From: Poseidonia sp.
Lineage (GTDB): Archaea; Thermoplasmatota; Poseidoniia; Poseidoniales; Poseidoniaceae
Assembly (NCBI GenBank): GCA_030829545.1
Contig: JAURAI010000001.1
Coordinates: 70,234 to 134,233, forward strand
DNA: 64,000 nucleotides
Direction of reading: 5' to 3'
In this document: positions 9,057 through 54,810 of the stretch, piece after piece
Layout: each line of letters opens with the position of its first letter
Position numbering within the stretch: the stretch's first letter is position 1
Translations under genes and position numbers: made by a program
The notes under the pieces: model-generated
Told to the model about the DNA's origin: nothing
Seen by the model: only the letters and a program-made list of their open reading frames with translations
Database searches by the model: none

Positions 9057-9195
9057 GGACAGCGAGGTGTCCATGAAGTCAACAGAACACATCGGTAGGC
9101 TAATGCTCATGGCTCTCATGTAACCCAAGCCTTTACCCTTTTTGAATGAACGGATAGGGCGTGAAGTTTGAAAACACCCATCGGTTGCGCAGAAC

Positions 9196-32896: not shown

Positions 32897-35056
32897 GTGT
32901 TTATGTGGACGGATGAACAACTGGCAGCGCAAGGGTGGACGAATGAGCAGATAGCAACCTATCGGGCTGAAGAGGCATCACAAGTGGTCAATGCCGTCAC
33001 TGATGGTGTGATTCCTGAAGCCATCAATGGTGAGGTGGCACTTCCCGAGACTGCATCGCCTGTGCTCCAAGAAACCTTTGAGGCTCGCATAAAGGGAGAT
33101 ATCCCGAACATCAATTCTACCTCAATTTCTGCAATCTTGTTAGTAGCCATGCTTGTGCTGGTACCATTTTCACTCTACTCGATTTCCAACGCAGAGGGTA
33201 CTCAAGGCCCACCGGGCGAAATTGGGACCGCTGGTACCAATGGGAGTGATGGTTCAAGTTTCCATCTTGTGCCATCTTTGGACGGCCTACCAGCTTGCGA
33301 TACATCTCTCAACAATCAAATCTTCTTCATAGCAGCCGACGCAGGGTTCCAAGTTTGCCAAAACAATGTTTGGACAGAGATCGACTTGACCGGGCAATCT
33401 GGACTCAATGGCACAGATGGCGCCAGTGGTCAAAATGGAACTGATGGACAAGATGGGGCCAACGGTCAAAATGGAGCTGATGGACAAGACGGGGCCGATG
33501 GCCAAAATGGGGCTGATGGACAGGACGGGGCCAACGGTCAAACATCACTCATGTCCACAAGCTTCGAAGCCCCCGGGGCGAATTGCCCCACGGGCGGTAC
33601 GAGAGTGGTGACTGGAATCGATGATAACGGCAACAATGCTTTATCCACTGATGAGATTGACGATACAATCTTCATTTGCAACGGTGAGAATGGCAACGAT
33701 GGAGCCAATGGTGCTGATGGTTTGGATGGTGCTGATGGCGTGGATGGTACGAACGGTAGTTCTACTACCACAATGATGGTTGCACGTCTTTCTGTTGCAC
33801 CAGCATACTTAGGATGCGGCGGTGTTGGGCAATTACTTCAACAAGGACTCGATGATGGTTCAGGTAATGGAATCGCACAGAATGGTATTCTTGAGTCAGG
33901 TGAAATAATTTCAAGTTCACTTATCTGCACCACATTCGTCGTCAATCAAGTTGAAGACCTCAACCCTGGTGCTACCGGCAGTAACCCCGCAGATTTCGTC
34001 ACCATCAACTCGACATTGTATTTCACGGCAAACAATGGCACTGCAAACGGTATTTGGTCAATGAACGCGAGCGGTAATATCTCGTTGGAGTACAGTGGTT
34101 CTGCACTGGGCCTGCGCGCTATTGGTTCCCAATTGATGTTTTCAGGACAAGGCCTTTCTCTTGACGTAGAACCATATGTTTACGATATATCGAACGGTAC
34201 TGCATGGCAAATCGCAGATATCTTCCCGGGGGCCTCTGGGAGTTTTGCGGGTGAATTCACGCTGATCGGCACAACCGTGTTTTTCTCTGCACGGGACAGT
34301 GCAGGCGTGTATGACCTTTGGGCGTATGATACCGTCAACTTCACGGTATGGAAACAGGTTGCAAACATTCAACCAACGGGATTGATTGCGGTTAATTCTG
34401 ATCTGTATTTCTCAGCGGGTCCAAACAATGGGAATGTCGAATTATGGAAGCATGAAACAGCCACAAACGCCACATTCATGGTGAAGGACATCAATCCTGG
34501 ATTGCTCTCTTCTTCGCCACAGCACCTCGCGCTGATGGGAACGACAATCTACATGTCTGCAAATGCGGGCACGACCTACGGAACTGAATTGTATGCATAC
34601 GAGACAACGAACAACTCGACATGGCTCGCAGCAGACATTCGACCCGGATTTGCAGGTAGTTCGCCATCAGAATTGGTCATCCTTGGAACGCGAATTTACC
34701 TCCAAGCAACATCGGGTTCATTTTTCGAAATGTGGGCTTATGAAACTACGAACAATTCATTCTGGGAGGTCACCAATATACAATCAACGTCCGGATTAGG
34801 TGGGCCAACCGAGTTAACCGTTCGCGGTTACACAGTATTCTTCGCAGCAGATGATGGAACAACTGGAGAAGAATTGTGGGCTCATCATTCAATCAATGAA
34901 ACGACTTGGCAAGTTATTGATTTGAATCCTGGGTCTGGTGGCCTCATTTACAAAGTCCATGCTCACGAAGGCAATGTTTACTTTTCAGGCGATGATGGGG
35001 TGGAGGGCATTGAATTATGGCGTCTAATTTTCTCACGAACCGTGAGTTTTGTTTGA
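32897..35056 (+). CDS. Membrane-anchored surface protein with collagen-like G-X-Y triple-helix repeats and C-terminal ELWxxDGT-type beta-propeller repeats
   Basis: An N-terminal TM helix, then (GxN/DG)n tracts GQNGTDGQDGANGQNGADGQDGADG and NGENGNDGANGADGLDGADGVDGTNG. These are followed by at least 7 repeats of the form ...LYFSA.DG..G.ELW..E..N.T.. seen directly in the translation. Confidence 0.55.
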   Translation: MFMWTDEQLAAQGWTNEQIATYRAEEASQVVNAVTDGVIPEAINGEVALPETASPVLQETFEARIKGDIPNINSTSISAILLVAMLVLVPFSLYSISNAEGTQGPPGEIGTAGTNGSDGSSFHLVPSLDGLPACDTSLNNQIFFIAADAGFQVCQNNVWTEIDLTGQSGLNGTDGASGQNGTDGQDGANGQNGADGQDGADGQNGADGQDGANGQTSLMSTSFEAPGANCPTGGTRVVTGIDDNGNNALSTDEIDDTIFICNGENGNDGANGADGLDGADGVDGTNGSSTTTMMVARLSVAPAYLGCGGVGQLLQQGLDDGSGNGIAQNGILESGEIISSSLICTTFVVNQVEDLNPGATGSNPADFVTINSTLYFTANNGTANGIWSMNASGNISLEYSGSALGLRAIGSQLMFSGQGLSLDVEPYVYDISNGTAWQIADIFPGASGSFAGEFTLIGTTVFFSARDSAGVYDLWAYDTVNFTVWKQVANIQPTGLIAVNSDLYFSAGPNNGNVELWKHETATNATFMVKDINPGLLSSSPQHLALMGTTIYMSANAGTTYGTELYAYETTNNSTWLAADIRPGFAGSSPSELVILGTRIYLQATSGSFFEMWAYETTNNSFWEVTNIQSTSGLGGPTELTVRGYTVFFAADDGTTGEELWAHHSINETTWQVIDLNPGSGGLIYKVHAHEGNVYFSGDDGVEGIELWRLIFSRTVSFV
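33395..33545 (+). repeat. Tandem 18-bp direct repeats (ggacaagatggggccaac / ggtcaaaatggagctgat units) encoding the collagen-like tract
   Basis: Seen in the sequence: about 8 near-identical 9/18-nt units in frame. Confidence 0.6.
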
Positions 35057-37616: not shown

Positions 37617-39647
37617 ATGAAGCACATGACCATGATTCAGGTTACACTACCGGACGGTACGGTCAACGAATACGCTTCAGGAATCACCTGTGCAGAAGTC
37701 ATTACTGATGCACTTGGAAAGAAACACGGATGCCTCGCTGCGAAAGTGGATGGTATGGAATACGACATGTCGCATGAATTGGACATGAATTGCTCGGTTG
37801 AGGGCATCAAATCTGATTCTGAAGATGGCATCCACATCCTTCGCCATTCCGCTGCCCACCTCCTCGCTCAAGCGGTCATGGAATTGTATCCTGGAGCCCT
37901 GCCGACCATTGGCCCTGCTATCGACCGTGGGTTCTACTATGATTTTGCAATGGAGCCCATCACAGAGGGAGACCTCAAGAAAATCGAAAAGAAAATGCAG
38001 GAATTGGCCCGCAGAAACTTCACGGTTGAACGAGTTGAACTGGATCAAGATTCGTTGAGGGAGCACTTTGAACACAACCCCTACAAACTTGAAATCATTG
38101 ATGATAAGTTGGAAGCAGGCGACGGTTCAACCATTTACAAGCAAGGCGAATGGTACGACCTCTGCCTTGGACCACACGTTCCCAATACCTCTCGGTTGAT
38201 GTTTGTCAAACTCACTTCCGTTTCCTCTGCTTACTGGCGAGGCGACCAAGACCGAGAGCAACTCGTTCGCATCTACGGTTTGGTCGAACCAAGCAAAGAT
38301 GCACTCAAGCAAACGCTGCACAGGATGGAGGAGGCAAAGAAACGCGACCACCGCAAACTCGGCAAGGACCTCCAACTCTTCCACATTGACGAGGAGGTTG
38401 GCCAAGGCCTCATCATGTGGACGCCAAGAGGGGCGATTATCCGTCAAGAATTGCAGGATTTCATTTCACACCACCTCCGTCGCCAAGGCTACCAGCAGGT
38501 GTTTACCCCGCACATTGGGAAATTGGATTTGTACCGCACCTCCGGTCATTTCCCCTACTACCAGGACTCGCAATACCCCCCTCTCGTTGAACGCGACTTG
38601 ATGAAGAAACTCGCTGATGAAGGTTGCACCTGCGGTGAATTGTCGAATCTGATGAAGACAGGCGACATCGACGGCTACATGCTCAAACCGATGAACTGCC
38701 CTCATCACGTCAAAATCTACGCCAGTCAAGCTCGTTCCTACCGCAATCTGCCACTGCGTTTGGCTGAATTCGGCACCGTCTACCGATGGGAACAATCGGG
38801 TGAGATCTCTGGCATGACCCGAGTTCGTGGCTTTACTCAGGACGATGCCCACCTTTTCGTAACTGAAGACCAAATCTCTCAGGAAGTGCTTGGCTGCATT
38901 GAGTTGGTTCAAATCATCTTTGACAAACTCGGAATGACAGATTACCGTGTTCGTGTGGGCCTGCGTGACCCAGATTCAACCAAGTATGTGGGCGACCCTT
39001 CTGCTTGGGAAAAAGCCGAAGATGCGTGCCGGAATGCAGCGGCTTCTCTGGGAGTTGACTGGTCTGAAGAAGAGGGTGAAGCAGCCTTCTATGGTCCGAA
39101 AATCGACTTTGTTGTCAAGGACGTCATTGGCAGAGAATGGCAACTCGGGACGGTGCAGGTAGACTACAATCTGCCCGAACGTTTCGATTTGACATACAAG
39201 GGAAGCGATGGAGAACTTCACCGTCCAGTCATGATTCATCGCGCCCCATTTGGCTCCATGGAACGGTTCTGTGGCGTTCTTATCGAGCATTTTGCCGGCC
39301 GATTCCCCACTTGGCTCACGCCCACGCAATGTCATATCATCACCATTTCCGAGAAGCACAAGGCCTACGCTGCGGAAGTTGAAGAAGCCCTCAAAGAACG
39401 TGGAATCCGTGTTGAAATGGATGATGGAGACGACACGGTGGGGAAGAAAATCCGCACCCATCGCAAACTTCAGCCGGCCTACATGGTGATTCTTGGCGAT
39501 GGTGAGATGGAAGGAAGAACCGTCAGCCTACGAGCCCGTAATGGTGACCAAGTTGCAGATCTCGGCCTTGAACAATTCATCGAAGACCTTCAATCGGAAA
39601 TCAATGAAAAGGTGAGTCAGCCATCGCTTGTACCGCCTTCATCGTGA
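37617..39647 (+). CDS. thrS: Threonyl-tRNA synthetase
   Basis: N-terminal TGS domain (MIQVTLPDGT), class II motifs and anticodon-binding domain. 676 aa. Confidence 0.95.
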   Translation: MKHMTMIQVTLPDGTVNEYASGITCAEVITDALGKKHGCLAAKVDGMEYDMSHELDMNCSVEGIKSDSEDGIHILRHSAAHLLAQAVMELYPGALPTIGPAIDRGFYYDFAMEPITEGDLKKIEKKMQELARRNFTVERVELDQDSLREHFEHNPYKLEIIDDKLEAGDGSTIYKQGEWYDLCLGPHVPNTSRLMFVKLTSVSSAYWRGDQDREQLVRIYGLVEPSKDALKQTLHRMEEAKKRDHRKLGKDLQLFHIDEEVGQGLIMWTPRGAIIRQELQDFISHHLRRQGYQQVFTPHIGKLDLYRTSGHFPYYQDSQYPPLVERDLMKKLADEGCTCGELSNLMKTGDIDGYMLKPMNCPHHVKIYASQARSYRNLPLRLAEFGTVYRWEQSGEISGMTRVRGFTQDDAHLFVTEDQISQEVLGCIELVQIIFDKLGMTDYRVRVGLRDPDSTKYVGDPSAWEKAEDACRNAAASLGVDWSEEEGEAAFYGPKIDFVVKDVIGREWQLGTVQVDYNLPERFDLTYKGSDGELHRPVMIHRAPFGSMERFCGVLIEHFAGRFPTWLTPTQCHIITISEKHKAYAAEVEEALKERGIRVEMDDGDDTVGKKIRTHRKLQPAYMVILGDGEMEGRTVSLRARNGDQVADLGLEQFIEDLQSEINEKVSQPSLVPPSS

Positions 39648-42183
39648 GTGTATTATCATGGCACCAGGTATCATTCAAGGCTTTTCTTTTGCCATGATTG
39701 GGCCCCTTTTCTTTGCCATCCTGACGGCTTGGTTTTTTTGGGACAAGGTCGTCCCCCGGCAACTGAAAGGACTCCAAGTGGCCTTTCAAACTGGAAACCG
39801 AACCTACGAAGTTCATCGAGTCACATCAACGGTTGAGGACGTCAAGGACCTGCTCGCTCGCCGAGGAACTCGCTTTGGAGTCGTCTCATACCTCATGGCT
39901 CTCACTGGAAGCCTCATTTTATTGTTTGAATTTACAACGTTCAGAGTCGAACTTTCCGAAGGCTATCATGCGCCTTCGGTGGCTCTTGCGCTGATTCTCA
40001 TCATGCTTCCTGCGGTCGTATCGAGTGGAACATCCTTGGGCGCTCAAGTGATTCGTCCTCTGGGAACCAACCGCGCAACGCTGCAGAACAATACACGTGC
40101 ACGAAACATCGCTTATGTTGCCCTGACCCTTTCGTGGCTTTTCTTGGCCGGAATGGTTGGATTGGTCGTGGATGCACAAGGTGGGTCACAAACACAAAGT
40201 GTCAGCATCGCAGCTTTCATCGCCTTCAGTCCAGCAGTTCTTGCCTATGGACGAATTCTTGGTTCATCGTGGAATGCCCTGAAGCAATCCTCGCAACAGA
40301 TTGGAAAAGGGAAGCCATCACCCTTCCACAATCACATTCCAAACGCACGTCAGCAATTCATCGCTCAAGTCGTTCATCTCAACTTGGTAGCCATGCCATT
40401 TGTTGCTCTTAATACACTCATCTCACTGCTCTTCTTGCTGTATAACCCGGACATGTTCATCCATTCCGACCGCGTTCTTGAACTTCCAGAATACCGACTC
40501 CAAAGCACCTACATGGAAGAAGGCGGGTTGCTTGGTTTCTGGCTCATTGAACTCTTTTCAAACATACCACAGGCGGGTATTCGAGTACCTATTGTGACCT
40601 CCCTGCTCTTGTTTTTGTTGCTCAACGTGGCGGCCATCGGATTCCTCTTTGTGTATGAAGTGGCCCGAATTCTTTTCCTTGACATCCAAGATGTTTCAGG
40701 AAAAGGAGGCATCCGCCTGGCAGACAGTCGTCTCTTGCGAGCCGAGCCTGTGCAGCAAGCGAACGTGTTGAATTTCTGTTTCACCGGATTTGCCGGTCAA
40801 TCCATGCTCCTGCTCGCCCTTGCGATGATCACGTTTTGGGATTCCAGTTTCCTCCCCCAAGGCAGCGCATGTGGTTCTTGGGAAGGCAGCGTATGTTCGG
40901 TTATGGAAAAGGACATGCTCGAACAATTGACGTGGATGCTCGCCTCGGGAGGTCAAATCGCATTTTTTGCAGTGTGGGCGCTCTCTTGGCGACGTTCAAA
41001 TCGACTTGATGATTTTACGTTCGATTCAACCATGGATGAAGACCGGACCAGACTTCGAGGCATCAGTGACATGATTTATCTCAAGCAGCGCCCAATCAAT
41101 GAACTCGTTGCAGGTGATGACTGGCAGACCGCACTCGACCGCTTTGAATCACATTCAATGCGCAATGAAGAACGCTTGGTCGGGTTGGACATGATACGGC
41201 AAACACAGGCGACCATGATGCTCAAGGTAGCCATCAACCGTTGGGACGATGCAGAAGAGGTCGCAGTTGACCTTCTAGCACTTCAAGGCGGACGAGATGC
41301 TCACCTCTCAAGGCTGACACTTTGTGCCGCTAGTCTGGCCCAACGCGACCTCAAAGAGGCCCGACCACGCCTCGCCCTTCTCAAGGACGATGATATCGAA
41401 GCAGTTCGCCTCAAATGGGTGGCTGCGGTATTGAATCCATCAACAAAACTCAGCCCAGAAGTCCGTTCCATGCTGAGTATTGACCCCATTACTCGGAAAA
41501 ATATCGCCATGCTACGTGAACTCAAGGAAGCACGGGTCGTAGCAGACCGACAGCGACTCAAACAGCCCACTGACCGGAGAATCTTCCTCAGTCAACTCGC
41601 ACGCATGCGGCTTGCTGGGCAGAGCGAACGCGCCCTTACGCTGCTTGAATTAGCCATGAAAGAGATGCAAGAAGAATGGGTGCACGGCACCATCGTTCAG
41701 AGTTTATTGAATTACGATGCGGGCAGAATGATGACAGCGGTTGACCTTGCTGAAAAATTACAAAAGTGCCATTCACGCAATCCGCATTTGCGAAGTGTTT
41801 TGCACCACTACGCTGATATGGGGCACACCACCTCACCCCCCTCTGAACAGTCGAAAATTGAATGGGCATTTGAGCAAGACTTGGATTGGCGTGAAAAATG
41901 GTCGGGCCATAACGTCAGCGTGCCTCCTCACATGAAGACGACAGACCTCAAAAAGCATGCATGGAGGGCCAATGCTTGGGTTGGTTTGACAAGTGAGAAA
42001 GGTTTAGCAGCTTTGCTCAAGGGCAAGCGTCAACATCAAAACCTCCCTGAAGACCTTCCTTTGTGCATCTATACGCATCTCGCTGGCCTGATGGTAACAA
42101 TCGGTGGAATGCCAGTGGATTTGGGTGTCCCCGGTACAATTCAACTCGATGATATTGAAGCAGCAAACCTGCTTGATTTGTAA
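39628..42183 (+). CDS. Large polytopic membrane protein (N-terminal ~430 aa, about 10 TM) with a ~420-aa cytoplasmic alpha-helical repeat (TPR-like) domain
   Basis: Hydropathy and helical-repeat composition only. No recognisable catalytic motif. The start is possibly ATG ~39658. Confidence 0.4.
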   Translation: MYRLHRECIIMAPGIIQGFSFAMIGPLFFAILTAWFFWDKVVPRQLKGLQVAFQTGNRTYEVHRVTSTVEDVKDLLARRGTRFGVVSYLMALTGSLILLFEFTTFRVELSEGYHAPSVALALILIMLPAVVSSGTSLGAQVIRPLGTNRATLQNNTRARNIAYVALTLSWLFLAGMVGLVVDAQGGSQTQSVSIAAFIAFSPAVLAYGRILGSSWNALKQSSQQIGKGKPSPFHNHIPNARQQFIAQVVHLNLVAMPFVALNTLISLLFLLYNPDMFIHSDRVLELPEYRLQSTYMEEGGLLGFWLIELFSNIPQAGIRVPIVTSLLLFLLLNVAAIGFLFVYEVARILFLDIQDVSGKGGIRLADSRLLRAEPVQQANVLNFCFTGFAGQSMLLLALAMITFWDSSFLPQGSACGSWEGSVCSVMEKDMLEQLTWMLASGGQIAFFAVWALSWRRSNRLDDFTFDSTMDEDRTRLRGISDMIYLKQRPINELVAGDDWQTALDRFESHSMRNEERLVGLDMIRQTQATMMLKVAINRWDDAEEVAVDLLALQGGRDAHLSRLTLCAASLAQRDLKEARPRLALLKDDDIEAVRLKWVAAVLNPSTKLSPEVRSMLSIDPITRKNIAMLRELKEARVVADRQRLKQPTDRRIFLSQLARMRLAGQSERALTLLELAMKEMQEEWVHGTIVQSLLNYDAGRMMTAVDLAEKLQKCHSRNPHLRSVLHHYADMGHTTSPPSEQSKIEWAFEQDLDWREKWSGHNVSVPPHMKTTDLKKHAWRANAWVGLTSEKGLAALLKGKRQHQNLPEDLPLCIYTHLAGLMVTIGGMPVDLGVPGTIQLDDIEAANLLDL

Positions 42184-43944
42184 TTAGATTCGTCGTCGTA
42201 GCCGTTCCATAGCAGCGTCGGCTTGAGAAAGGTGTTGAAGACATTCTTCGATTCGGCTGACGCCTAACATCTCCTCGGACAGTGCAATGGCTTCCTCACA
42301 GGCCCGTCGATCTTCATCGGTGATGGTAATACCGGCAGCTTCGCATTGATTTCGAAGGACCTTCCACTCATCCATCACGTAATCGTAGAGTTCGAGGGCT
42401 TCACCACTTGCTCGTCCTTCTTTGTCCAAGTCCGTCGTCATGCGTTCCAAGAGCATGCCCGCATGAGACCAGGACCGGTCGTCAGCCGCTTGTTCTATTT
42501 CAGCGAGCGCCTTTGCCCACGTATCCTCGTCATCTCGGCCTTCATACCGCTTGACCAGTTGTTTTCGCTGCTTGAGGGCACGAAGGACATCGTCCATCGC
42601 CGCACGCTCGCGTTGCAAGGTTCGTACCACACCATCAGCGAGACCAATCGCTTGACTGGCATTGCCTTCTTCAAGAGCGTTTTCTGCTTGCTTGAGGCGT
42701 TGTTTTCCTTCGTTCAAATCCAATCCGTCGGCTTGGTCTATCTGGCGACGGGCTTCTTTGATGGACTCAAGAGCACGGTCTTGTGCTTCACCTTCTGCTT
42801 CAAGTTGTCCAGGTATGACGACGGCAAATTCAAAGGCCTCACGGGGTTGTTCCTTCACCAATTTTTCTTTGGCATCCTTGAGAAGGTCTCGCAAGGTTGT
42901 GATGCCGTCTCCTTTCTTTCCGTCCAGTGCTCGAACGGCCTCAGTGATGGCAACCTCTGCTTGGCTCCACCATTCGATAACTTCGCCAGCTCGTTTCTTG
43001 GCTTGTCGGAACAATTGTTCACCTTCACGCAGTGAACCCAACCCAACTTCTCGCACTCCCATGTCGTAAGCCTTTCTCGGGCGTTTGACAACTGGGGCGA
43101 TTGATTCAGCTCGTTCAATGGCCTCGAGAGCGTCATGACGAATGATTTCAACATCGCCTGCGAAGGAAAGCGCTCGTTCCATGTCTTCTTCACTATCGTC
43201 AAGAAGGCGCATGCCATAGGTGGGGTCAAGGTGACCTTCTTCTTTGGCAGTGGTCAACAAACTTGCCGCCTGAGCGACCGCTGCTCCTTGTGCCTTCAAC
43301 TCAAGAAGGCGTCCTTCCAAACGGTCCAATCTCCTCTGGAATGCTTTTCGTTCTACCTTTTGATCGTCACCAACCGACCACGAATACACCGTATCGCCGC
43401 AGGCTAACACCGCAAAAGTAGCGGCCAGCCCACCTGCCAATGTGGTGAAAGATTCAACCTGAATGAGGACCAGTGCGACGGCTGATGCGCTGCCAATGCC
43501 CGTGAGAATGGAACGAAAGCGCAAGACTCCAAAGTGTCCACGAAGGGTAGTAACAGCCATCTTTCGAGCCACAAAGGCGGCGAAGAGGACGAGAACACTT
43601 CCTGCCGATGCCTGATTCGAGCCAGTATCAAGGCCCAAGGCTCCAATCACCAGAAGCACGGGCCACGCCAAAGCAGTGGATGAGCCCAAACGTGTACGGG
43701 CGGAGGGGTCGTCCAACACCAAATCTTGAAGGAAAATACCCCACAATATCAGAGCGAAGGGTGGGCCGAAATTAGTCAATACAACGCCTTCTCCTTGCGC
43801 CATACTCTTGAGCGTTGGCCAAGCCAACCAGACTGCACAGCCTAGAATGATAAAAGCAGTATACATGGCCATGGATTCAACGCGCTTCGTGCGTTGCAAG
43901 CGCTCGGCTTGAATCGCTGAATCAGCATCAGCCCATGTGACCAT
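42184..43944 (-). CDS. Membrane protein (about 8 TM N-terminal) with a long C-terminal coiled-coil domain
   Basis: Hydrophobic N-terminus followed by ~350 aa of heptad-like E/A/L/R/K-rich sequence. It is convergent with and directly abuts the preceding gene. Confidence 0.4.
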   Translation of the reverse strand: MVTWADADSAIQAERLQRTKRVESMAMYTAFIILGCAVWLAWPTLKSMAQGEGVVLTNFGPPFALILWGIFLQDLVLDDPSARTRLGSSTALAWPVLLVIGALGLDTGSNQASAGSVLVLFAAFVARKMAVTTLRGHFGVLRFRSILTGIGSASAVALVLIQVESFTTLAGGLAATFAVLACGDTVYSWSVGDDQKVERKAFQRRLDRLEGRLLELKAQGAAVAQAASLLTTAKEEGHLDPTYGMRLLDDSEEDMERALSFAGDVEIIRHDALEAIERAESIAPVVKRPRKAYDMGVREVGLGSLREGEQLFRQAKKRAGEVIEWWSQAEVAITEAVRALDGKKGDGITTLRDLLKDAKEKLVKEQPREAFEFAVVIPGQLEAEGEAQDRALESIKEARRQIDQADGLDLNEGKQRLKQAENALEEGNASQAIGLADGVVRTLQRERAAMDDVLRALKQRKQLVKRYEGRDDEDTWAKALAEIEQAADDRSWSHAGMLLERMTTDLDKEGRASGEALELYDYVMDEWKVLRNQCEAAGITITDEDRRACEEAIALSEEMLGVSRIEECLQHLSQADAAMERLRRRI

Positions 43945-46509: not shown

Positions 46510-46839
46510 GGTTGGTGGGCATCGCTACATGGTTTCAATACAACGGAAAACCGGGGCGGCTCACAGGGCATCTCCCTGCGAATATTTTCAATTGTAAAAT
46601 CAATTATTCAATTAGAAAATTAAATTACGATTTACGCACGACGGTTCGTATCTTTTTGAGGCGATTTGGATGATTCATTTTTCAAAAGCGGAAAAAGCAG
46701 GGCCTGCAATCAAGTTTCTTGGTCTTTCAAAGCGCATTTCCAGTTGGAAAATCTCAAAGGGTCTTCAAATCAACAATAATGGCCGTTCAAGCGCAAAACT
46801 TCTTGAAGGCTACAGCGCTGTCACGGGAATTGAGCGAGC

Positions 46840-47181
46840 ATGTTGCAACGTCTTCTTACCGGATTCCTTCAACAGGAAGGCGTAGAGCAAGCCGTGATGT
46901 TTGACGAACGTGGCCGCCTCATGGCGAGTGTCGGTCGGCAAGGCCAACTACCAGCCCTCGAAGACGCCATAGCACTCACATCAGCGGCCTTGAGTGCTTG
47001 TGTTGAACACGAGCTGGGAGACCTCTACGAAATCTGGTCTGAAGGCGAACAACGAACGATGATCGACGTCATTACCCCCTATCGTATTTTGATGCTCAAG
47101 GGCCAAGGTGGCCGTCTTGCACGCTGGCGGCACAGCGTTGACCATCGCCGACGTCAATTGGCCACTACCCCCGAATTTTAG
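46840..47181 (+). CDS. Roadblock/LC7 (MglB-like) domain protein, standalone (113 aa)
   Basis: Size and pattern AVMFDERGRLMASVGRQ...LPALEDAIALTSAALS are consistent with the alpha-beta-alpha Roadblock fold. It directly abuts the next gene (stop/start adjacent). Confidence 0.5.
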   Translation: MLQRLLTGFLQQEGVEQAVMFDERGRLMASVGRQGQLPALEDAIALTSAALSACVEHELGDLYEIWSEGEQRTMIDVITPYRILMLKGQGGRLARWRHSVDHRRRQLATTPEF

Positions 47182-50100
47182 GTGAATACTATGTTTGAAC
47201 TACCCAAAGGAACGCCTGTTACCAAAGAGATTTCACTCGCTGAGGGTCATCTACAGCCCTTCGCCCACGGCGCTATTACAAGTTACATCGGTCGACGAAA
47301 AACACCGAGTGCCCATCGTTTGGTGCGTGGTGGACGCATCGTTGGTTGGATTGCGGAAGATAAGGACAAGGGCGTGATGCTTGGAGGTAGCGAAGCCCGT
47401 ATTCAATTGGAAGCCATCGAAGCCGAAGGAAAACTTCGCCTGGTTGGAAACAGGTACACTTTGAGTGGCCTTGGAGGGATTGCTGAGATCATTCCAGAGG
47501 CCTTTGAACACCAAGCAGACCGGCAGGGGTTGAGAGCCAGCACCAATTACGTTGCACGTTTACTGGCAAGGGACCTCTCGATGGTTGTAAAGACGCTTAT
47601 TCTTGATCCAACCGTGCGAGGCGCTATTGCTATTGACGGAGGCATGCTCATCGACGCTGCAGGTGACCTGCCTGGCTTTGGAGAGGAAGAAGCACTCGCA
47701 TCTCACGTGTATGACCTTCTTTCAAACATGCGAATGGAGGACCGCCCTCATCTCGCTGTCAAAGGACAAGGTCACTGGATTTTGCATACCGAAGAGGGAG
47801 CGCTCTTGCTCGCACAAAGCGGAGATATTGCACTTGCAGCTTGGACTGAACGTGATGCGAACCATGCTCGATTACTTTCTGCCACATCAACCGCTTTATC
47901 CGGCGATGTAGCATCTGCGGGTGAAGATGGAACAAAACTCCCTGAAGGGTTTACCCTGCGAGAAGGCCGTGGTGGTCCAGACGCCATTGTTTCCATGTTG
48001 AAGGCAGGCCTCCAAGAAGAAGTAACCGGCCATATTCAGTCGGGAAGTTCAAGCAAAGCTGTTTCATTGGTGCTGTCACAAGGTGTACCCGTTGCACTCT
48101 GGGCGCCTTCCGTCGACGACGAGACAGAAGCACTCCGATTGCTTACCGAGCCAAAGCGAAAGGTCCGTCTTGTTCGGCTACCTGCGGGCACCATCGTTAC
48201 CGCTCGTTCTGGGACAATCGCCTCGTTTTCTCTTACTGGTTTCATTGACCAGTTAGCCACCATCCGCACGCGTTCAGAAGCACGCCAGGAATCGTTGAGA
48301 GCCGCCCTTACCGACATGCTAGGATTCGAAGCAGGTATTGAGCAATTGCGGACTGAACGTGCAAAGTTAGCGTTCAAAACCGACGGCATGGAATCAGCCG
48401 TTCCCCTTCAGGTCATGCAAGAACAAGCCGTCTCGGCTGTGGATGAAGGATTGCGTCGCCGCCTGGAGAAATCGGAACAAACCGTGTCGGCATTGAACGC
48501 CTCCATCGCTGTACTCGAGGGTAAAATCAAGCAGTTAGAAACCAAGAAAGATGCAGCACAAATTGTTGCAAGAGAGGCCAGTGAAACACGACAAGAGCAC
48601 ACTGTCGCAATGGAAAACGCTCATGCACAACTCAACACGATGCAGGTTGACCTTGCACAATCAAGAGCCACTTCAGAAGAAGCAACGGCAAGGGCTGAAC
48701 GGTTGGTTCGAAGAGTGAATGAACTCGAGCATCAAGTCAGCGAGCGTGCGGCAGAATTAGCAAAAGCCATCGGTGAAGCAAGTTCGAGCGCAGAATTACA
48801 AAGCATGATCGAAGAACTCTCCCTCAAGGAAGCAGAGTTGCAAGCCAATTTGGGCGAAGGAAGTCAACGATTGACGACCATACGCCAGCAAAGCGATGAT
48901 GAAGAACGCCGATTGCGAGTTTTGACCGAACAAGTCAGCACCACTCGCGAGCGACATGCTCGGGCTCAATCCGACCTTCTCAGCCTGCAGGAACAGGTCC
49001 ACGTCCAACAACTTGAACTTGAAGCGGCTCGATTGGAGGAAAAGAAATCCCGAGGCCACGCTGACGAGGACCGCCGACGTCGTGCTGAAGAAGAAGCGCG
49101 ACGCTCCAACACCGAGGCTGAACTACGTGAATTGATGAATGAACGACGGCAAGTCCTCCGAGAATTGGGTGACTTGGGTGCCCGAAGAGGGCATGCTGAA
49201 GCAGAATTAGCCTCGCTTGTCGAGAAGGCCACCGACTTAGCCACCGCTCACGAGGAAGCCCTTGCCGATATACAAGAAGCAGAGCGCCTGCGTGCCCGGC
49301 TTGCCGAAGAACCACTTGCTCAGGCACTCCTCGACGATAACAACACCTTCCAGGGCCTTGGCCCCGTGTTGGAGCGACTTGAACACGCTCGAGAACTCGG
49401 ATATTCTGTGACGATGCTCGACAGGGCTGTTGAGCGAGCCTTGCAGGTGATTCAATCAACGGTTGATCAAGTTGCCGCAACACCTCGTCACCTGCTTTCT
49501 TCGGAAGTGATGACGCTCTTGGAACGACAGGTCCCTCAAACTGCAGGAGCCGTGCGAGGACTCGCACGCTGGTCAGTTCAGCAGCGTCTTGAACTCCAAC
49601 TTGGAGAAACAGTCAATCACCTTGTGCTTGACCTCGAACACCTTCTCGAGGATTACGACCGCTCGATTACAATGTTACGCCGAATCCGAAACGTGCTTGA
49701 ACAAATCGAGCGATTGGGGGCACCTGAGCATGAAGTCCACGCCCTCATGGCCAATTGTCAACGCCCAGAGGCGCTACCGAGTCTCGCCCTTGGAACGCGT
49801 AAGTTGATTCAAGTTGCTCTTGATGACATCTACCTTGAGGCAGACCAGCGCGATGCGGGAGAAGCGATTGGACTGGAAGAAACCGCCCGGGTCCTCGAAG
49901 AACTCATCACGCAACTGGATGCTTCAGGACTGACTGACGGCCGTCCACGCGGCATGCTTTGGGAATTCCAGCGGGATGGGTTGCTGCCCTTCGAGCGAGA
50001 TGCCATTCCTGCTGAACAACGTCTTCCAGTCGACGAAGGAATGCTGCACGCTTTGGAACCACACCTCCTTGCATCAGAGGCCTTAGAGGCCGTAGAGGCA

Positions 50101-50364
50101 CCTGCCGCAGAAGCCGTCGACAGTGACGGGTGGTCTGAACTTCCTGCGCCGAGCGACGATGCTGTCCATGCGGCGGTTGAATCTTCATCCCCTGCCACGA
50201 CCTCCCATGATGACCTGGACGACGAGAGAGCGAGACTCGAAGCAGAATTGGCCCGCATTGATGCAGAATGGAGTCATCGTGACGTACCCGCAGGCAACAC
50301 GCCTGTTCCTGCTGATGCTGCCCTCACAGACCTTGAGGCCCGGCTTTCAAACATTGACTTTTGA
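47182..50364 (+). CDS. Giant (1060 aa) protein: 2-3 N-terminal Roadblock/LC7-like modules + ~500-aa coiled coil (SMC/myosin-tail-like) + acidic C-terminal domain
   Basis: Modules at ~aa 1-110, 115-215 (RGAIAIDGGMLIDAAGDLPGFGEEEALASHVYDLLSNM) and 225-330. Residues ~380-900 are almost pure heptad E/A/R/L/Q sequence. The C-terminus is D/E-rich. Confidence 0.5.
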   Translation: MNTMFELPKGTPVTKEISLAEGHLQPFAHGAITSYIGRRKTPSAHRLVRGGRIVGWIAEDKDKGVMLGGSEARIQLEAIEAEGKLRLVGNRYTLSGLGGIAEIIPEAFEHQADRQGLRASTNYVARLLARDLSMVVKTLILDPTVRGAIAIDGGMLIDAAGDLPGFGEEEALASHVYDLLSNMRMEDRPHLAVKGQGHWILHTEEGALLLAQSGDIALAAWTERDANHARLLSATSTALSGDVASAGEDGTKLPEGFTLREGRGGPDAIVSMLKAGLQEEVTGHIQSGSSSKAVSLVLSQGVPVALWAPSVDDETEALRLLTEPKRKVRLVRLPAGTIVTARSGTIASFSLTGFIDQLATIRTRSEARQESLRAALTDMLGFEAGIEQLRTERAKLAFKTDGMESAVPLQVMQEQAVSAVDEGLRRRLEKSEQTVSALNASIAVLEGKIKQLETKKDAAQIVAREASETRQEHTVAMENAHAQLNTMQVDLAQSRATSEEATARAERLVRRVNELEHQVSERAAELAKAIGEASSSAELQSMIEELSLKEAELQANLGEGSQRLTTIRQQSDDEERRLRVLTEQVSTTRERHARAQSDLLSLQEQVHVQQLELEAARLEEKKSRGHADEDRRRRAEEEARRSNTEAELRELMNERRQVLRELGDLGARRGHAEAELASLVEKATDLATAHEEALADIQEAERLRARLAEEPLAQALLDDNNTFQGLGPVLERLEHARELGYSVTMLDRAVERALQVIQSTVDQVAATPRHLLSSEVMTLLERQVPQTAGAVRGLARWSVQQRLELQLGETVNHLVLDLEHLLEDYDRSITMLRRIRNVLEQIERLGAPEHEVHALMANCQRPEALPSLALGTRKLIQVALDDIYLEADQRDAGEAIGLEETARVLEELITQLDASGLTDGRPRGMLWEFQRDGLLPFERDAIPAEQRLPVDEGMLHALEPHLLASEALEAVEAPAAEAVDSDGWSELPAPSDDAVHAAVESSSPATTSHDDLDDERARLEAELARIDAEWSHRDVPAGNTPVPADAALTDLEARLSNIDF

Positions 50365-50618
50365 GGTGGCCCATAATGACCGAGGCAACCACGCTCATGG
50401 GACGAACTGAAGAGCGAGAGAAAGCATACCCGTTGTGGATTGAGCGGGTTCTTCTCCTTGTTGCAGGAGTCGTTGTTATTCTCTATTCTCCAAAGATAAA
50501 CGCATCTATTGACCATGCGTGGATGGGGCCATTCGTGGCCTACATCGCTGTTCCTTTGGCATTGCTCGCTGCTGTTGAATTGATGGGCCGTTTTGTCCAA
50601 GGACGGCAAGGCTCATAA
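50361..50618 (+). CDS. Small 2-TM membrane protein, overlapping the stop of the giant coiled-coil gene (operon partner)
   Basis: 4-nt overlap. Two hydrophobic helices (LLLVAGVVVILY, VAYIAVPLALLAAV). Confidence 0.4.
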   Translation: MRWPIMTEATTLMGRTEEREKAYPLWIERVLLLVAGVVVILYSPKINASIDHAWMGPFVAYIAVPLALLAAVELMGRFVQGRQGS

Positions 50619-51830
50619 TTGACTGAAATCCTTTGACGCAGGCTCTGGTTCAACCAGATTGCTACGTGATTGTATCAATCCAATGACACGCTGCCAAGGG
50701 ATAAAGAAACGGAGAACAGCCATCAAGCTCAAGAATAACAAAGCTGAGATGACCAAGCCATAGGTCAATGTCAATTCAATCGATTCAGAGACTTGACCCG
50801 CCCATTGACTTCCCGTGGTATCCGATACAATAGTCAACAAGACCTTGTGGAAGCCAAGAGCCACCATCGTGGCAATACCGGTTAATCCGAGGAACAGGAA
50901 AGTGTGTCTCAAGTGCGTGTTGAGGACGTTGTCCATTTGGCGGACATATTCCGGGTCACGCTTGCATGATTCAGGGAGTCGGAAAGCGTATTCGAGGTTG
51001 CGAATAACGCCGTAACTTGCTTCCTGGAAAACCATGATCAAAACGGCGATGAGGATGAGATTGAATTGCTCTTGCGTCACCAATTTAAGCCCGAAGAGAC
51101 CGATGGTTGGATCTGAAGTTTGGCTCTCAAGGACGGCAAGTGTTCCTCCGTAGGACCCCAATTGCGATTTGATGAGCGGGAAGGTCAGGATGGCATGTAT
51201 TCCCAAGAACAGGAGGGTGAATCCAATCGCCCAGGCGATGGAGCGGCGGGACAGACCCCATATTCCTCGAGTGCCCATGATAACGGGGAGGAGATAAATG
51301 AACATGATGAGCAGTGACATGATCATCAATAAGGGCCACTGAAGTGTTTGCAATTCTGAATCAGTGGGCAAGCGTAAATCAAAGGAAAAGAGCATGCCGG
51401 CCAACCACGAGAGAGTCAGACGACCGATCAGCAAAACGATGAGGCCGATAATGAAACCCAATTTGATACGTTGCTGGACCTTTGGTATTTGGAATGCGAG
51501 GAAGGCCATTGCACCACCGAGGCTCAGTCCGAGGACCATGGGGACAAAGAAACGGGCAAGGCCTGAGCGACCTTCTCCAGTGAGCCAATCACCCAAGGGT
51601 AATTGGTCGGAGATGAGCAATTCAATGGTATCGAAAAGAATCGTGTGGTCGATGGAGCCAACAACATAGGTAGAGACCACTTCGAGGTACATTCCAATCA
51701 AGGCTACCGTTGCAACCACTTGCAGTGTAATGATTTGCCATTGGCGACGGAGGTTCTTGAGATGAAGCGTACGTGGACGCGCCGTTCCTTCAAGGAGGAC
51801 ATCTGACTGAAGACCAACTTCACCTGCCAT
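50613..51830 (-). CDS. Polytopic membrane protein (about 10 TM), terminal gene of the DUF4350-DUF58 cluster
   Basis: Hydropathy. Its start sits 2 nt after the upstream DUF58 gene. Confidence 0.45.
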   Translation of the reverse strand: MAGEVGLQSDVLLEGTARPRTLHLKNLRRQWQIITLQVVATVALIGMYLEVVSTYVVGSIDHTILFDTIELLISDQLPLGDWLTGEGRSGLARFFVPMVLGLSLGGAMAFLAFQIPKVQQRIKLGFIIGLIVLLIGRLTLSWLAGMLFSFDLRLPTDSELQTLQWPLLMIMSLLIMFIYLLPVIMGTRGIWGLSRRSIAWAIGFTLLFLGIHAILTFPLIKSQLGSYGGTLAVLESQTSDPTIGLFGLKLVTQEQFNLILIAVLIMVFQEASYGVIRNLEYAFRLPESCKRDPEYVRQMDNVLNTHLRHTFLFLGLTGIATMVALGFHKVLLTIVSDTTGSQWAGQVSESIELTLTYGLVISALLFLSLMAVLRFFIPWQRVIGLIQSRSNLVEPEPASKDFSQL

Positions 51831-51831
51831 C

Positions 51832-53085
51832 TTAGTACCCCCTTACCTGCATCAATGCCTGTGATAAATCCATGTCAGGCATCCAATCGATGACCTGTGC
51901 GCCTGAACCTGCCAAGGTGGTCAAACGATTCTGACGTTCCAGTTTGAGCACTTCGTAGGACATACGAGGAATACGGCTGACCAAGCGTTCAAAGTCAACG
52001 CTTGAAGGTGACAGGACCGTGACTTCGTGGCCTCGTCCTACCAAATCACGTACGGCGGCAGGAACGGTTCCATCGCCTTCACACGATGAGATGATGAAGA
52101 CAGGACTTCCCCTGCTAAATCGCCCACTCAGAGAGTTTGTGACCGCTTGAAGGGGCATTTCCCCTTTCGGTGTAACGCCTGCAAGGGCGCTGAGGATTTT
52201 GAAATACTGCTTGTCACCCGTATCGGGAGGAAGGTAGGATAGTTTCTCGTCGTATATCGCCAAAGCAACCGAATCTCGACGTTGCAGGAAGAAGGCTGCG
52301 AGACTGGCTGCAGATACAGTACCCATTTCGAGAGGATTCTTGAGAACCGTCCCAATACGCGCCAAATCACGACTGTCCAAAATCAAGAACAGGTCTGTTA
52401 CGGCGTCACGGCACTTTTCGTTGACCATCAGTTCGCCGGTACGAGCGTATGCTTTCCAATTGATATTCTTGAACGGGTCTCCGGGAACGTATTCCCTTAG
52501 TGAGTAGAATTCAGAGCCTTGTCCTGGTGTTCTTAGCGTGGTAGCACCGGTGTACATCTTAGGGGTACGACTTCGCAAAAATGCTTCTTCAATGTCCTTG
52601 ATTTGCGGGAAGATGACGATATCGCTGTGGTGGTCAACATACATCTCTTCAACGCCGAGGTTGAAGGTATTGCGAGCCCGGAGGGACACTGGGCCAATGG
52701 AATAGTGGCCGCGCAGTGGGCAGCGTAGAACGTAACGAATGCGTGCGCTCTCGCCTGGTTTGAGGTTCAATTGCATCTGATTGAGTCCACTTCGTAGTTT
52801 CATTTCATGAGGAATGTTATCGTAAATATCCAGCATCTGAGTTTTCCGATTGCTGCGGTTTGTTACGAGCAGTTCAACGTAGAGGTCGTCGCCCTTGTAC
52901 AAATTGTCGGCAGAAAGAGTGCGCTGTACTTCGACATCACCGTGGCCTGAAATCCATGAATTCACGACGATAAAAGCAACGAGGCTCAATCCGAGGATCA
53001 TCATTTGTTGATTGGAAATCATCATCCCAATCAGGACCAGAGCAATCCCTCCAGTGAAGGTAAATGCTGCTTTACGAGTCCACAT
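51832..53085 (-). CDS. DUF58 family protein (vWA-like, MoxR-operon associated)
   Basis: GSEFYSLREYVPGDPFKNINWKAYARTGELMV matches the DUF58 signature (REY..GD..R.I.WKA.AR). It has an N-terminal TM pair. Confidence 0.7.
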   Translation of the reverse strand: MWTRKAAFTFTGGIALVLIGMMISNQQMMILGLSLVAFIVVNSWISGHGDVEVQRTLSADNLYKGDDLYVELLVTNRSNRKTQMLDIYDNIPHEMKLRSGLNQMQLNLKPGESARIRYVLRCPLRGHYSIGPVSLRARNTFNLGVEEMYVDHHSDIVIFPQIKDIEEAFLRSRTPKMYTGATTLRTPGQGSEFYSLREYVPGDPFKNINWKAYARTGELMVNEKCRDAVTDLFLILDSRDLARIGTVLKNPLEMGTVSAASLAAFFLQRRDSVALAIYDEKLSYLPPDTGDKQYFKILSALAGVTPKGEMPLQAVTNSLSGRFSRGSPVFIISSCEGDGTVPAAVRDLVGRGHEVTVLSPSSVDFERLVSRIPRMSYEVLKLERQNRLTTLAGSGAQVIDWMPDMDLSQALMQVRGY

Positions 53086-53094
53086 GATACCACC

Positions 53095-54810
53095 TCACTG
53101 ACGTCCCCACGCCTTGATTCGTTTGACCAGAGCAACCGTTTGTTCAAGCGTGTATCTGTTGCTTGCTTCAACGGCGAATTTAGCCAACACCGGGTCGTTG
53201 ATCATCGAAACCAACTCGTTTGCCTTCATCGCTTGGAACTCTTCTCGATTCAACCCGTTCTGGTTACGAACCTTGGAAAGGAAGACTTGGCGAATTTTCT
53301 CCACTTTGGAGTAGTATGCATACCGGTTGGCATCACCAAATCCATAGTAGATGATGCTGAAAACGTGGCGCCAAGGTTCAGGGTCACGTTTCTTGATGAG
53401 GACCGCTTCAAAGGTGATAAAGAGAATCAGGAAGAGAAGAAGCATAGCAAGTCCTTCTCCTGTGAAGTAGACCAAGAGGAAGTAAACGGTGTTGTAAGAA
53501 TCAGCAGCCAGTGCGCTTTGGGGGTGGCGTGATTCGTCAAAGATGACCATGGCGTTTTCTGCGGGTTGTCCTTCCTCACCGATCAGTTCGCTCATCAGGG
53601 CTTCTGCAATGAAGTCAAGTGCCCATTTACGATTGTCATTCTGAGGCATCAAGGTGGCTGTTTCACCGTACTCACCATCGTTGAACCCTTCATAATCGTA
53701 CATGGCATTGATCAGCGCAGAACCATCGGCGATGAACAAAACACGCCCTCCGTCACTTGGTGAACAACTTGCCCTCGCACACGCTTCGATGCTGAGGTTG
53801 AATTGACCCCAGCGGTCGGGAGTCTCAGGTGTGATTTCATTGCCAACCCAGATTTCTCCATCACCGTTGACGTCAACGGTAGCCTCGTTGCTGGTAAGAG
53901 CCCGTATGGCAACTTCGGTCAATGGACCTCTCACTCCTGGAATGACTTCCAATCCAGTAATGTTGTTGAGCAACATTTGGTAGGTTGCGTTGTATTCAAC
54001 GATGCCGCCTACGAGATGGTGAGCGCACAAGCCCGCTTGGGATTCAGACAAACTTTGACCGTCAAGTTTTGCACACGGGTGCTCACCAGGCCCGTCTGGC
54101 ACACCCCATCGACTGTGAGTGGAGAGGGTTGTTGGGTCAACTTCGGTGCCGTTCATTCCGCAAGGATTGGACTGGACGCACATCCAGATGTAATTGTAAT
54201 CAAGTTCAGCGACGTATGTTGTGTCAAAGACCTGTTCACCAGTATAGCGAATTCCAAAGGCCTCAGCGATGGTGTTGGCATATCCGTAATCCTCGAGAAT
54301 GAGGGCTGTGCCGCCCGCTTCAACAAATTCAACAATCGCATTGATCTCTGAAGGAGAAAACCCATTGCCAGATGCGATCGTGATGAAACCATCTTCGTCA
54401 AATTGAGGCAAGGTGAGGGTGTCACGTTCAACACCTGCGAGGACGTAGGTCGTGTTACGTGGGTCCTCGATATCGGCGAGCAAAAGTGGACTGCTCACCA
54501 AAGAACGGGTGTCGATATTCATGGCGCGGATGTCTTCACGGAAGGCTGACATATCGTTCCAATCATCGTCATAGGCTGATAGTTGGTTGGTGGCACTGAT
54601 GTTGATGAAATTCGACATAATCGTGAGAAGAAGAATCAACATTACTCCCCAAAACGAAGCTTGGAGGGCGAGCCTCCGAGCGTTGAAATTGGCGGGGAGT
54701 CCTAGCATGCACATCACAAGGGATAAGGTTCCCAAATCAGCACGGGCTCCTATGACTTTAGAAGGTTGTCCACCTTCGTGGAGAAAATGCTCATCTCCAT
54801 TCGAGCGCAA
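53095..54810 (-). CDS. DUF4350/GldG-like extracytoplasmic protein with N- and C-terminal TM anchors
   Basis: AIVEFVEAGGTALILEDYGYAN resembles the DUF4350 core. Signal-anchor at the N-terminus and TM helix LLVYFTGEGLAMLLLFLILFITF near the C-terminus. Confidence 0.45.
   Translation of the reverse strand: MRSNGDEHFLHEGGQPSKVIGARADLGTLSLVMCMLGLPANFNARRLALQASFWGVMLILLLTIMSNFINISATNQLSAYDDDWNDMSAFREDIRAMNIDTRSLVSSPLLLADIEDPRNTTYVLAGVERDTLTLPQFDEDGFITIASGNGFSPSEINAIVEFVEAGGTALILEDYGYANTIAEAFGIRYTGEQVFDTTYVAELDYNYIWMCVQSNPCGMNGTEVDPTTLSTHSRWGVPDGPGEHPCAKLDGQSLSESQAGLCAHHLVGGIVEYNATYQMLLNNITGLEVIPGVRGPLTEVAIRALTSNEATVDVNGDGEIWVGNEITPETPDRWGQFNLSIEACARASCSPSDGGRVLFIADGSALINAMYDYEGFNDGEYGETATLMPQNDNRKWALDFIAEALMSELIGEEGQPAENAMVIFDESRHPQSALAADSYNTVYFLLVYFTGEGLAMLLLFLILFITFEAVLIKKRDPEPWRHVFSIIYYGFGDANRYAYYSKVEKIRQVFLSKVRNQNGLNREEFQAMKANELVSMINDPVLAKFAVEASNRYTLEQTVALVKRIKAWGRQ

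Follow-up and report, generated by a model that had tools for sequence, protein, structure and literature searches.

A 64,000-nucleotide (nt) stretch of the genome of Poseidonia sp. (assembly GCA_030829545.1, contig JAURAI010000001.1), hereafter the window, whose positions are used throughout, carries a cassette of three closely spaced genes. They encode, in order, a standalone Roadblock/LC7 protein, a very large protein (the giant) in which a long coiled coil is joined to a Roadblock domain, and a small protein with two transmembrane (TM) helices. We tentatively read this cassette as specific to the order Poseidoniales, conserved order-wide, and encoding a membrane-associated Roadblock scaffold. 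The gene order and short intergenic gaps that have been kept, the single architecture of the giant and the conserved DNA element upstream all support the scaffold reading at the level of sequence.

The three open reading frames (ORFs) are co-oriented on the + strand at 46840-47181 (113 amino acids, aa), 47182-50364 (1060 aa, starting with GTG) and 50361-50618 (85 aa, starting with TTG), and confirm the tight unit of standalone Roadblock protein, Roadblock/coiled-coil giant and 2-TM protein that an earlier note on this DNA had described. The GTG at 47182 is the earliest start option past the preceding stop codon. Because homologues of the giant are 1057 aa long and begin with MFELP, and because AGGTGA lies 6 nt 5′ of the ATG at 47191, the giant gene most likely starts at this ATG, spans 47191-50364 and encodes 1057 aa; it does directly follow the 113-aa ORF, as had been noted, but its length of 1060 aa is not retained. 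In the third gene, GAGGTG precedes the ATG at 50376, and similarity to homologues sets in downstream of the TTG at 50361. The more likely start is this ATG, which yields a protein of 80 aa and places the gene 11 nt past the stop codon of the giant. The 4-nt overlap reported earlier is present for the TTG ORF, but since it needs the TTG start it is probably an artefact of ORF calling, with a true gap of about 11 nt.

From the common orientation and the gaps of about 10 nt we infer that the three genes form an operon, an argument drawn from spacing and orientation because the housekeeping neighbours are also syntenic, which makes adjacency alone weak. The Roadblock ORF and the giant share one frame, with a single TAG between them (47179-47193), in the window and in L001 and L002, which are closest to it. 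Read-through or a split gene was rejected as an explanation: the relative frame of the two genes differs in most other species (7649 vs 8001 and similar), and the homologues are called separately at 113 aa and 1057 aa. Since the frame relation varies among species, the two genes are taken to be separate and their shared frame in the window to be coincidental.

On the basis of its predicted structure, the product of the first gene is a canonical single-domain Roadblock/LC7 protein, as the earlier note had proposed. The AlphaFold2 (AF2) model (predicted local distance difference test, pLDDT, 88.5; confident in one of five models only) has the topology a-bb-a-bbb-a, with elements H2-11, E15-21, E27-32, H40-56, E64-67, E71-79, E82-89 and H93-109, and so contains the Roadblock core fold (alpha-beta-beta-alpha-beta-beta-beta). 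When the model was compared with the PDB by Foldseek, the top 50 matches were all Roadblock, MglB, MglC or LAMTOR proteins (probability 1.0, template modelling score 0.6-0.8), led by Asgard Roadblock3, MglB and LAMTOR at about 0.8. The window protein itself matches Pfam Robl_LC7 (PF03259) at 14.2 bits and E 0.037, against a curated cut-off of 23 bits; this family is matched at E < 0.1 by 29 of 30 orthologues (best E 1.7e-5), and three orthologues have precomputed PF03259 matches. A PDB sequence search with the family profile returned two Roadblock proteins as its sole matches, both weak (E 0.23 and 0.4).

The N-terminal region of the giant (aa 1-380) was modelled with AF2 from an alignment of 37 sequences with identities down to 47%. 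The model (mean pLDDT 78.7) consists of three distinct modules placed relative to one another with low confidence (predicted template modelling score 0.44). Module 2 has the Roadblock core fold both in the model and by fold search, and the matches obtained with the whole N-terminal model span only about 110 residues, equivalent to a single Roadblock domain. The models therefore support one Roadblock domain in the giant, module 2 (aa ~118-240), where the earlier note had seen 2-3 in tandem. Module 1 is predicted to have strands at 26-33, 41-46, 49-56 and 63-65, a helix at 66-79, a strand at 82-88 and a helix at 91-100 (pLDDT 80-88), and module 3 the order b-a-bbb-a-b (pLDDT 82-93). Neither this order nor the bbbb-a-b-a of module 1 is like that of Roadblock, hhalign comparison of both modules with the Roadblock family and with module 2 gave no match (E 0.2-0.7), and no Pfam, PDB sequence-profile or hhalign match was found for either. 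Extra Roadblock or longin domains were rejected on these grounds. Assignment to PATAN/DUF4388, suggested by a sequence pattern in modules 1 and 3, was also dropped, as no DUF4388 match was obtained at E <= 1 among 26 N-terminal sequences or at E <= 0.1 among nine distant full-length homologues.

The modules are followed by a coiled-coil rod, called here with a simple home-made script for heptad periodicity rather than a trained predictor. The heptad register is steady at aa 337-525 and again at aa 533-707, with a shift near aa 525-535, and the mean register score is 0.554 vs 0.381 +/- 0.024 for shuffled sequences. Residues 426-675 are free of proline, and residues ~600-650 are rich in E, R and K. 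By this measure the coiled coil is about 350 aa long (aa ~348-707); the long heptad coiled coil reported earlier is present, but not the ~500 continuous residues attributed to it.

The best-conserved part of the giant, absent from the account in the earlier note, lies at aa ~640-940. Mean identity to the window sequence is 85% here, vs 54-63% in the three N-terminal modules and the rod, and 28% of the columns are invariant over 87 sequences that include Marine Group IIb (MGIIb). These values support the view that the strongest purifying selection on the giant falls on its C-terminal domain (about 230-300 aa). No significant Pfam or PDB sequence relative of the domain was found, only matches at chance level such as FliS (E 0.04), and by sequence this nearly invariant domain is a new domain family. 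The remainder of the protein (aa 941-1057) has a net charge of -22, in agreement with the very acidic tail described earlier, and comprises a variable linker (35% identity) and a more conserved tail (60%). The tail ends in a peptide of the form DERAxLEAELARxD ... L..LE..LS-N/D-I/L-D/E-hydrophobic-COOH, a motif retained in distant homologues. A conserved peptide tethered behind a disordered acidic linker suggests partner recruitment. In Marine Group IIa (MGIIa) it includes DLEARLSNI, which we take to resemble the MIM1 motif of ESCRT-III; the arginine is not conserved in MGIIb, and the resemblance is offered as a lead only.

The third gene encodes a 2-TM protein, as had been noted, with hydrophobic helices spanning aa ~18-40 and ~49-72. 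T6, L7, R10, E12, Y18, P19, E23, P60, L64, E68 and R72 are invariant. The family is marked by the motif TL.GR.E...YP..[LI]ER in the predicted cytoplasmic N-terminus and by E..GR at the end of the second TM helix, and a small homologous ORF is found 3′ of the giant in most loci, including those of MGIIb.

In a pattern scan covering one genome for each GTDB species, a relative was found in 216 species representatives, at the same conserved site on the chromosome. Synteny was compared over 87 loci, made up of the 80 best (MGIIa, 57-94% identity) and the distant loci L081-L087. The order Roadblock gene, giant gene, small TM gene is retained in the 80 best loci wherever the flank exists. The distant loci have the same order, with an upstream gene of 100-114 aa that aligns with the Roadblock protein and a downstream TM gene of 83-93 aa; where named, the distant giant clusters (33-45% identity) belong to Thalassarchaeaceae (MGIIb) or Poseidoniales. 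The three-gene arrangement is thus conserved in 80 MGIIa species and, at 33-45% identity, in MGIIb, which answers in the affirmative a check that the earlier note had left open. The best matches are proteins from metagenome-assembled genomes (MAGs) named Poseidonia, Poseidoniaceae or Poseidoniales. When 1.84 billion representatives were searched exhaustively by HMMER with an N-terminal profile of the giant, only 73 clusters were retrieved, and the full-length representatives are all 1020-1089 aa long and aligned across the whole N-terminal region. Judged from these sequences, the giant forms a narrow family of uniform architecture. No relatives were found in viral contigs, and a viral origin was rejected. 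One locus with full Poseidonia synteny and 73% identity (L010, NZEQ01000033.1) comes from a MAG labelled "Verrucomicrobiales bacterium"; the contig is probably mis-binned.

The cassette is preceded by a divergent intergenic region of 330 nt, between ttuA and the Roadblock gene, whose length is kept across species and whose DNA blocks are more conserved than coding sequence. Two A/T-rich palindromes about 20 nt apart, similar to TTCAATTGAAAA, are probably promoter or regulator sites. Nearer the cassette lie the blocks ATTTCCAGTTGGAAAATC and AGCGCAAAACTTCTTGAAGGCTACAGCGCTGTC, the latter about 20-50 nt before the Roadblock ATG; both are near-invariant as DNA, whereas the protein encoded downstream is 43-96% identical. 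Exactly one copy of the 18-nt core motif ATTTCCAGTTGGAAAATC is present in each of 57 of the 87 loci (MGIIa); the window contains no further exact copy, and none was found in the MGIIb loci. The position of the motif in the MGIIa loci is near-constant, the distance to the start codon having been checked in 13-16 aligned species. No Rfam match, consensus RNA fold or covariation was detected in the block, and a structured RNA was rejected on this basis; the block is probably an operon-specific promoter or regulator site acting at the DNA level. In one MGIIa clade (L041, L043, L053, L055, L056, L060 and L077), a perfect hairpin, CCCCCTTTAGGGGG, is found about 75 nt 5′ of the Roadblock start, where the clade of the window has unstructured sequence.

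Roadblock domains act as dimers, and dimers of Roadblock or longin domains form platforms for small GTPases, as in MglB, Ragulator and the longin/Roadblock guanine nucleotide exchange factors. By analogy with these systems, the free Roadblock protein could pair with module 2 of the giant, or two copies of the giant could pair with each other, giving the usual platform of two lobes, set on one end of a parallel coiled-coil dimer some 50 nm in length. Docking of the rod onto partners would fall to the invariant C-terminal domain and to the tethered peptide behind it, and the co-encoded 2-TM protein would be the most likely membrane anchor. The platform would then bind, regulate or position a nucleoside triphosphatase (NTPase) or other client encoded elsewhere. 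In this way the membrane would gain a spatial cue that guides polarity, division or the placement of surface structures, and the cytoskeletal, membrane-remodelling or polarity role suggested in the earlier note is plausible.

Several points weigh against a membrane-associated scaffold of this kind. A scan for Walker A and G3/G4 motifs among ORFs of at least 80 aa in the 64 kb found no protein with a P-loop and NKxD, neither a GTPase nor another NTPase partner was found in the window, and no GTPase Pfam family occurs among the called genes of the distant loci L081-L087 (five read; flanks of up to 8 kb). The pairing of the Roadblock protein with module 2, and that of the giant with the TM protein, are purely inferred. 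The most conserved domain of the giant has no recognisable relatives, so the key activity may differ from GTPase regulation. Synteny across the order extends to the entire region, with pyrBI, ttuA and CDC48 included, and conserved adjacency is accordingly weak functional evidence. In the most distant lineage (L081-L083, giant 33% identical), a gene for an FG-GAP repeat protein of 448-461 aa (9182-10567) stands between the giant, whose 3′ end it overlaps by about 50-90 nt, and the TM gene (10578-10859).

The giant itself has no Walker A motif or P-loop by motif scan, and the motif scan of the window together with the neighbour annotation bears out the earlier statement that no GTPase, SMC hinge or ATPase motif is present in or beside the cassette. 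The locus thus lacks what defines the MglA/MglB type, a cognate Ras-like GTPase encoded at most a few genes away from the Roadblock gene. To treat this as unusual, as the earlier note did, overstates the case, because in a survey of prokaryotic MglA and MglB 328 of 749 MglB homologues were uncoupled from MglA (none within four genes), and none of these had then been characterized (PMC4316618).

The giant could instead be a purely structural cytoskeletal element, comparable to the coiled-coil-rich or intermediate-filament-like proteins of bacteria, in which the Roadblock domains only dimerise or form a lattice and no NTPase takes part. The long heptad rod would suit such an element, as would the extreme conservation of the C-terminal domain, which a self-assembling surface would show. 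The vicinity, both in the window and in the distant loci, is free of NTPases, and occurrence in 216 species representatives at one chromosomal position is what might be seen for a housekeeping structural protein. However, three globular N-terminal modules and a free Roadblock protein exceed the needs of a filament, the tethered C-terminal peptide past the disordered acidic linker points to partner recruitment, and there is no evidence of polymerisation. We regard this explanation as rather unlikely. A bolder form of the membrane-associated scaffold, also unlikely, would be a new membrane-tethered archaeal cytoskeletal or polarity apparatus, in which a Roadblock heterodimer sits on a rod of about 50 nm whose C-terminal domain is anchored to the 2-TM protein, and which either has no small GTPase dedicated to it or serves a client of another kind.

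A third possibility concerns the convergent operon downstream, which encodes a 405-aa polytopic membrane protein without a Pfam family (50613-51830), a DUF58 protein (51832-53085; E 2.2e-19) and a DUF4350 protein (53095-54810; E 9.6e-9), and which is syntenic in all loci with enough flank. The cassette might be a cytoplasmic accessory of this operon, with the giant scaffolding or regulating its membrane complex. The two units are tail to tail: the 3′ ends of the TM gene (+) and the 405-aa membrane-protein gene (-) overlap by 6 nt in the window (50613-50618), and the units are adjacent in MGIIb. Two of the operon's proteins are unusually conserved, with amino acid identities across species of 93-100% for DUF58 and 75-99% for the 405-aa protein, where pyrB has 79-98% and the giant 57-94%. 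A faint Pfam similarity of module 3 to VMAP-C (vWA-MoxR associated; E 0.055, 4 of 26 members) would fit as well. DUF58 genes are usually accompanied by a MoxR ATPase, and DUF58/DUF4350 gene sets are usually tied to MoxR/vWA-type systems. Yet the VMAP-C match is far below threshold, no MoxR ATPase adjoins the DUF58 operon in the window, the opposite strands preclude co-transcription, and adjacency is uninformative in a neighbourhood that is syntenic in its entirety, housekeeping genes included; this explanation appears quite improbable. At the same convergence in MGIIb loci the gap is likewise zero or negative (L085, 9501/9502; L087, 3519-3522), and in all these cases no space is left for terminators.

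An SMC-, Rad50- or MukB-like protein of chromosome organisation or repair is effectively refuted, and with it the SMC-like or Rad50-like identity that the earlier note had named as a refuting case: NCBIfam SMC (SMC_prok_B, E 1.3e-9) and Rad50 models match at 8-36 bits against cut-offs of 567-1087, and PADLOC JetC at 15.5 bits (E 7e-4; cut-offs over all these models 567-1500), but the former are confined to aa ~390-850 and the latter to the coiled-coil region, all are explained by the ~350-aa coiled coil that is the one trait in common with these proteins (hundreds of residues long), and the giant has no Walker A motif, hinge or zinc hook, its termini carrying Roadblock and unassigned domains in place of ATPase heads. 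Anti-phage defence was likewise rejected, with PADLOC giving only the coiled-coil-level JetC match and the locus holding a fixed core-genome position in all 87 loci.

Among known systems, MglB, the GTPase-activating protein of the Ras-like MglA in Myxococcus and Thermus, and its paralogue MglC differ from the cassette in that the latter has no MglA-type GTPase nearby and carries one of its two Roadblock domains within a coiled-coil protein of 1057 aa; at the sequence level the similarity is marginal (13-23% identity). In structure, LAMTOR2-5 belong to the best matches of the cassette Roadblock domains, and Ragulator resembles the cassette in combining Roadblock pairs with a separate small membrane-anchoring component. 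This is a functional analogy and not membership: Ragulator is eukaryotic, with four single-domain Roadblock subunits, a lipidated p18 and no coiled-coil rod, and no Rag-like GTPase was found for the cassette. Both Roadblock domains are matched best in structure by Asgard Roadblock and Roadblock-longin proteins (PDB 9jue, 7yh1, 7f8m and 8yqg; PMC10933270), which are also archaeal and include multi-domain Roadblock fusions. The Asgard proteins, however, are short or longin-fused and occur alongside many small GTPases, whereas the Roadblock domain of the Poseidoniales giant shares its chain with unassigned modules, a coiled coil and a conserved domain that is novel. The cassette falls in the broad, unexplored class of orphan MglB homologues (Wuichet and Sogaard-Andersen 2014, PMC4316618), but that survey treats single-domain proteins and describes neither a coiled-coil fusion nor a conserved 2-TM partner. 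The haloarchaeal ArvA/ArvB/ArvC vesiculation operon was rejected as a relative, as ArvB and ArvC are DUF2073 and DUF2072 proteins and not Roadblock proteins (PMC10927574). Annotations of the family are limited to "hypothetical protein" or generic COG names. Neither the literature searched nor the source annotations describe a Roadblock domain inside a 1057-aa rod protein that also has two unassigned modules and a new, nearly invariant domain, together with a free Roadblock protein and a 2-TM protein, in line with the earlier judgement that the architecture is undescribed. The parts (Roadblock fold, coiled coil, small TM protein) are of known kinds; their combination is new.

The coordinates of all features are collected in Table 1. 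The genes around the cassette are housekeeping genes, including those for ThrRS, NAD kinase, pyrB/pyrI, TtuA, CDC48, aldehyde dehydrogenase, succinate dehydrogenase, DnaK, thermosome and CTP synthase, and the locus is a core chromosomal region rather than an island. Close to the cassette, at 42184-43944 (-), lies a second uncharacterised coiled-coil-like membrane protein of 586 aa, with N-terminal hydrophobic segments and a long, charged, helical C-terminal part; it is syntenic in MGIIa (53-92% identity) and has no Pfam, NCBIfam or PADLOC match. Other large ORFs without a Pfam family are found at 39628-42183 (+; 851 aa) at E <= 1e-3, and at 14805-17882 (-; 1025 aa) and 1628-3325 (-; 565 aa) at E <= 1e-5. 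A 719-aa protein at 32897-35056 (+) combines collagen triple-helix repeats (E 5.8e-14) with a DUF7151 domain behind them (E 1.2e-18), an unusual find in an archaeon.

Table 1. Features of the Roadblock cassette and its surroundings, in window positions; residue numbers refer to the 1057-aa giant.
Feature	Position	Strand	Basis
Two A/T-rich palindromes, TTCAATTGAAAA-like, about 20 nt apart	46575..46625	.	Conserved in 13 aligned species
Conserved non-coding blocks ATTTCCAGTTGGAAAATC (46736-46753) and AGCGCAAAACTTCTTGAAGGCTACAGCGCTGTC (about 46790-46822)	46736..46822	+	DNA alignment
Standalone Roadblock/LC7 (MglB-like) protein, 113 aa	46840..47181	+	Pfam in orthologues, AF2, Foldseek
Giant module 1, predicted small beta-rich alpha/beta domain (aa 1-112; core ~20-105)	47191..47526	+	AF2
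Giant module 2, predicted internal Roadblock/LC7 domain (aa 118-240)	47542..47910	+	AF2 and fold search
Giant module 3, predicted small alpha/beta domain (aa 244-346; core ~254-345)	47920..48228	+	AF2
Giant coiled-coil rod (aa ~348-707)	48232..49311	+	Heptad register analysis
Giant C-terminal helical region, highly conserved (aa 640-940; its initial ~70 aa shared with the end of the rod)	49108..50010	+	Alignment
Giant acidic variable linker (aa 941-1010) and conserved C-terminal peptide, then stop	50011..50364	+	Alignment, charge
Small 2-TM membrane protein, 80 aa (85 aa with TTG 50361)	50376..50618	+	Hydrophobicity, homologues
Convergent neighbour operon: 405-aa polytopic membrane protein, DUF58, DUF4350	50613..54810	-	Pfam

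The Poseidoniales (Marine Group II) rank with the most abundant archaea of the surface ocean; to our knowledge none has been cultured, and their cell biology is almost unknown. The occurrence of the cassette in 216 species representatives, at one fixed position, and the strong purifying selection acting on it make a central role in these cells probable. Best known from bacterial MglB and from the Ragulator, dynein and longin complexes of eukaryotes, the Roadblock platform is extended here to a new fused architecture in Euryarchaeota. A membrane-anchored scaffold, if that reading is true, would offer a first way into the spatial organisation of Poseidoniales cells and would bear on the age and the GTPase independence of Roadblock platforms. 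If the apparatus proved to be GTPase-free, the most abundant planktonic Euryarchaeota would provide a GTPase-independent Roadblock platform from a group other than the eukaryotes and the Asgard archaea.

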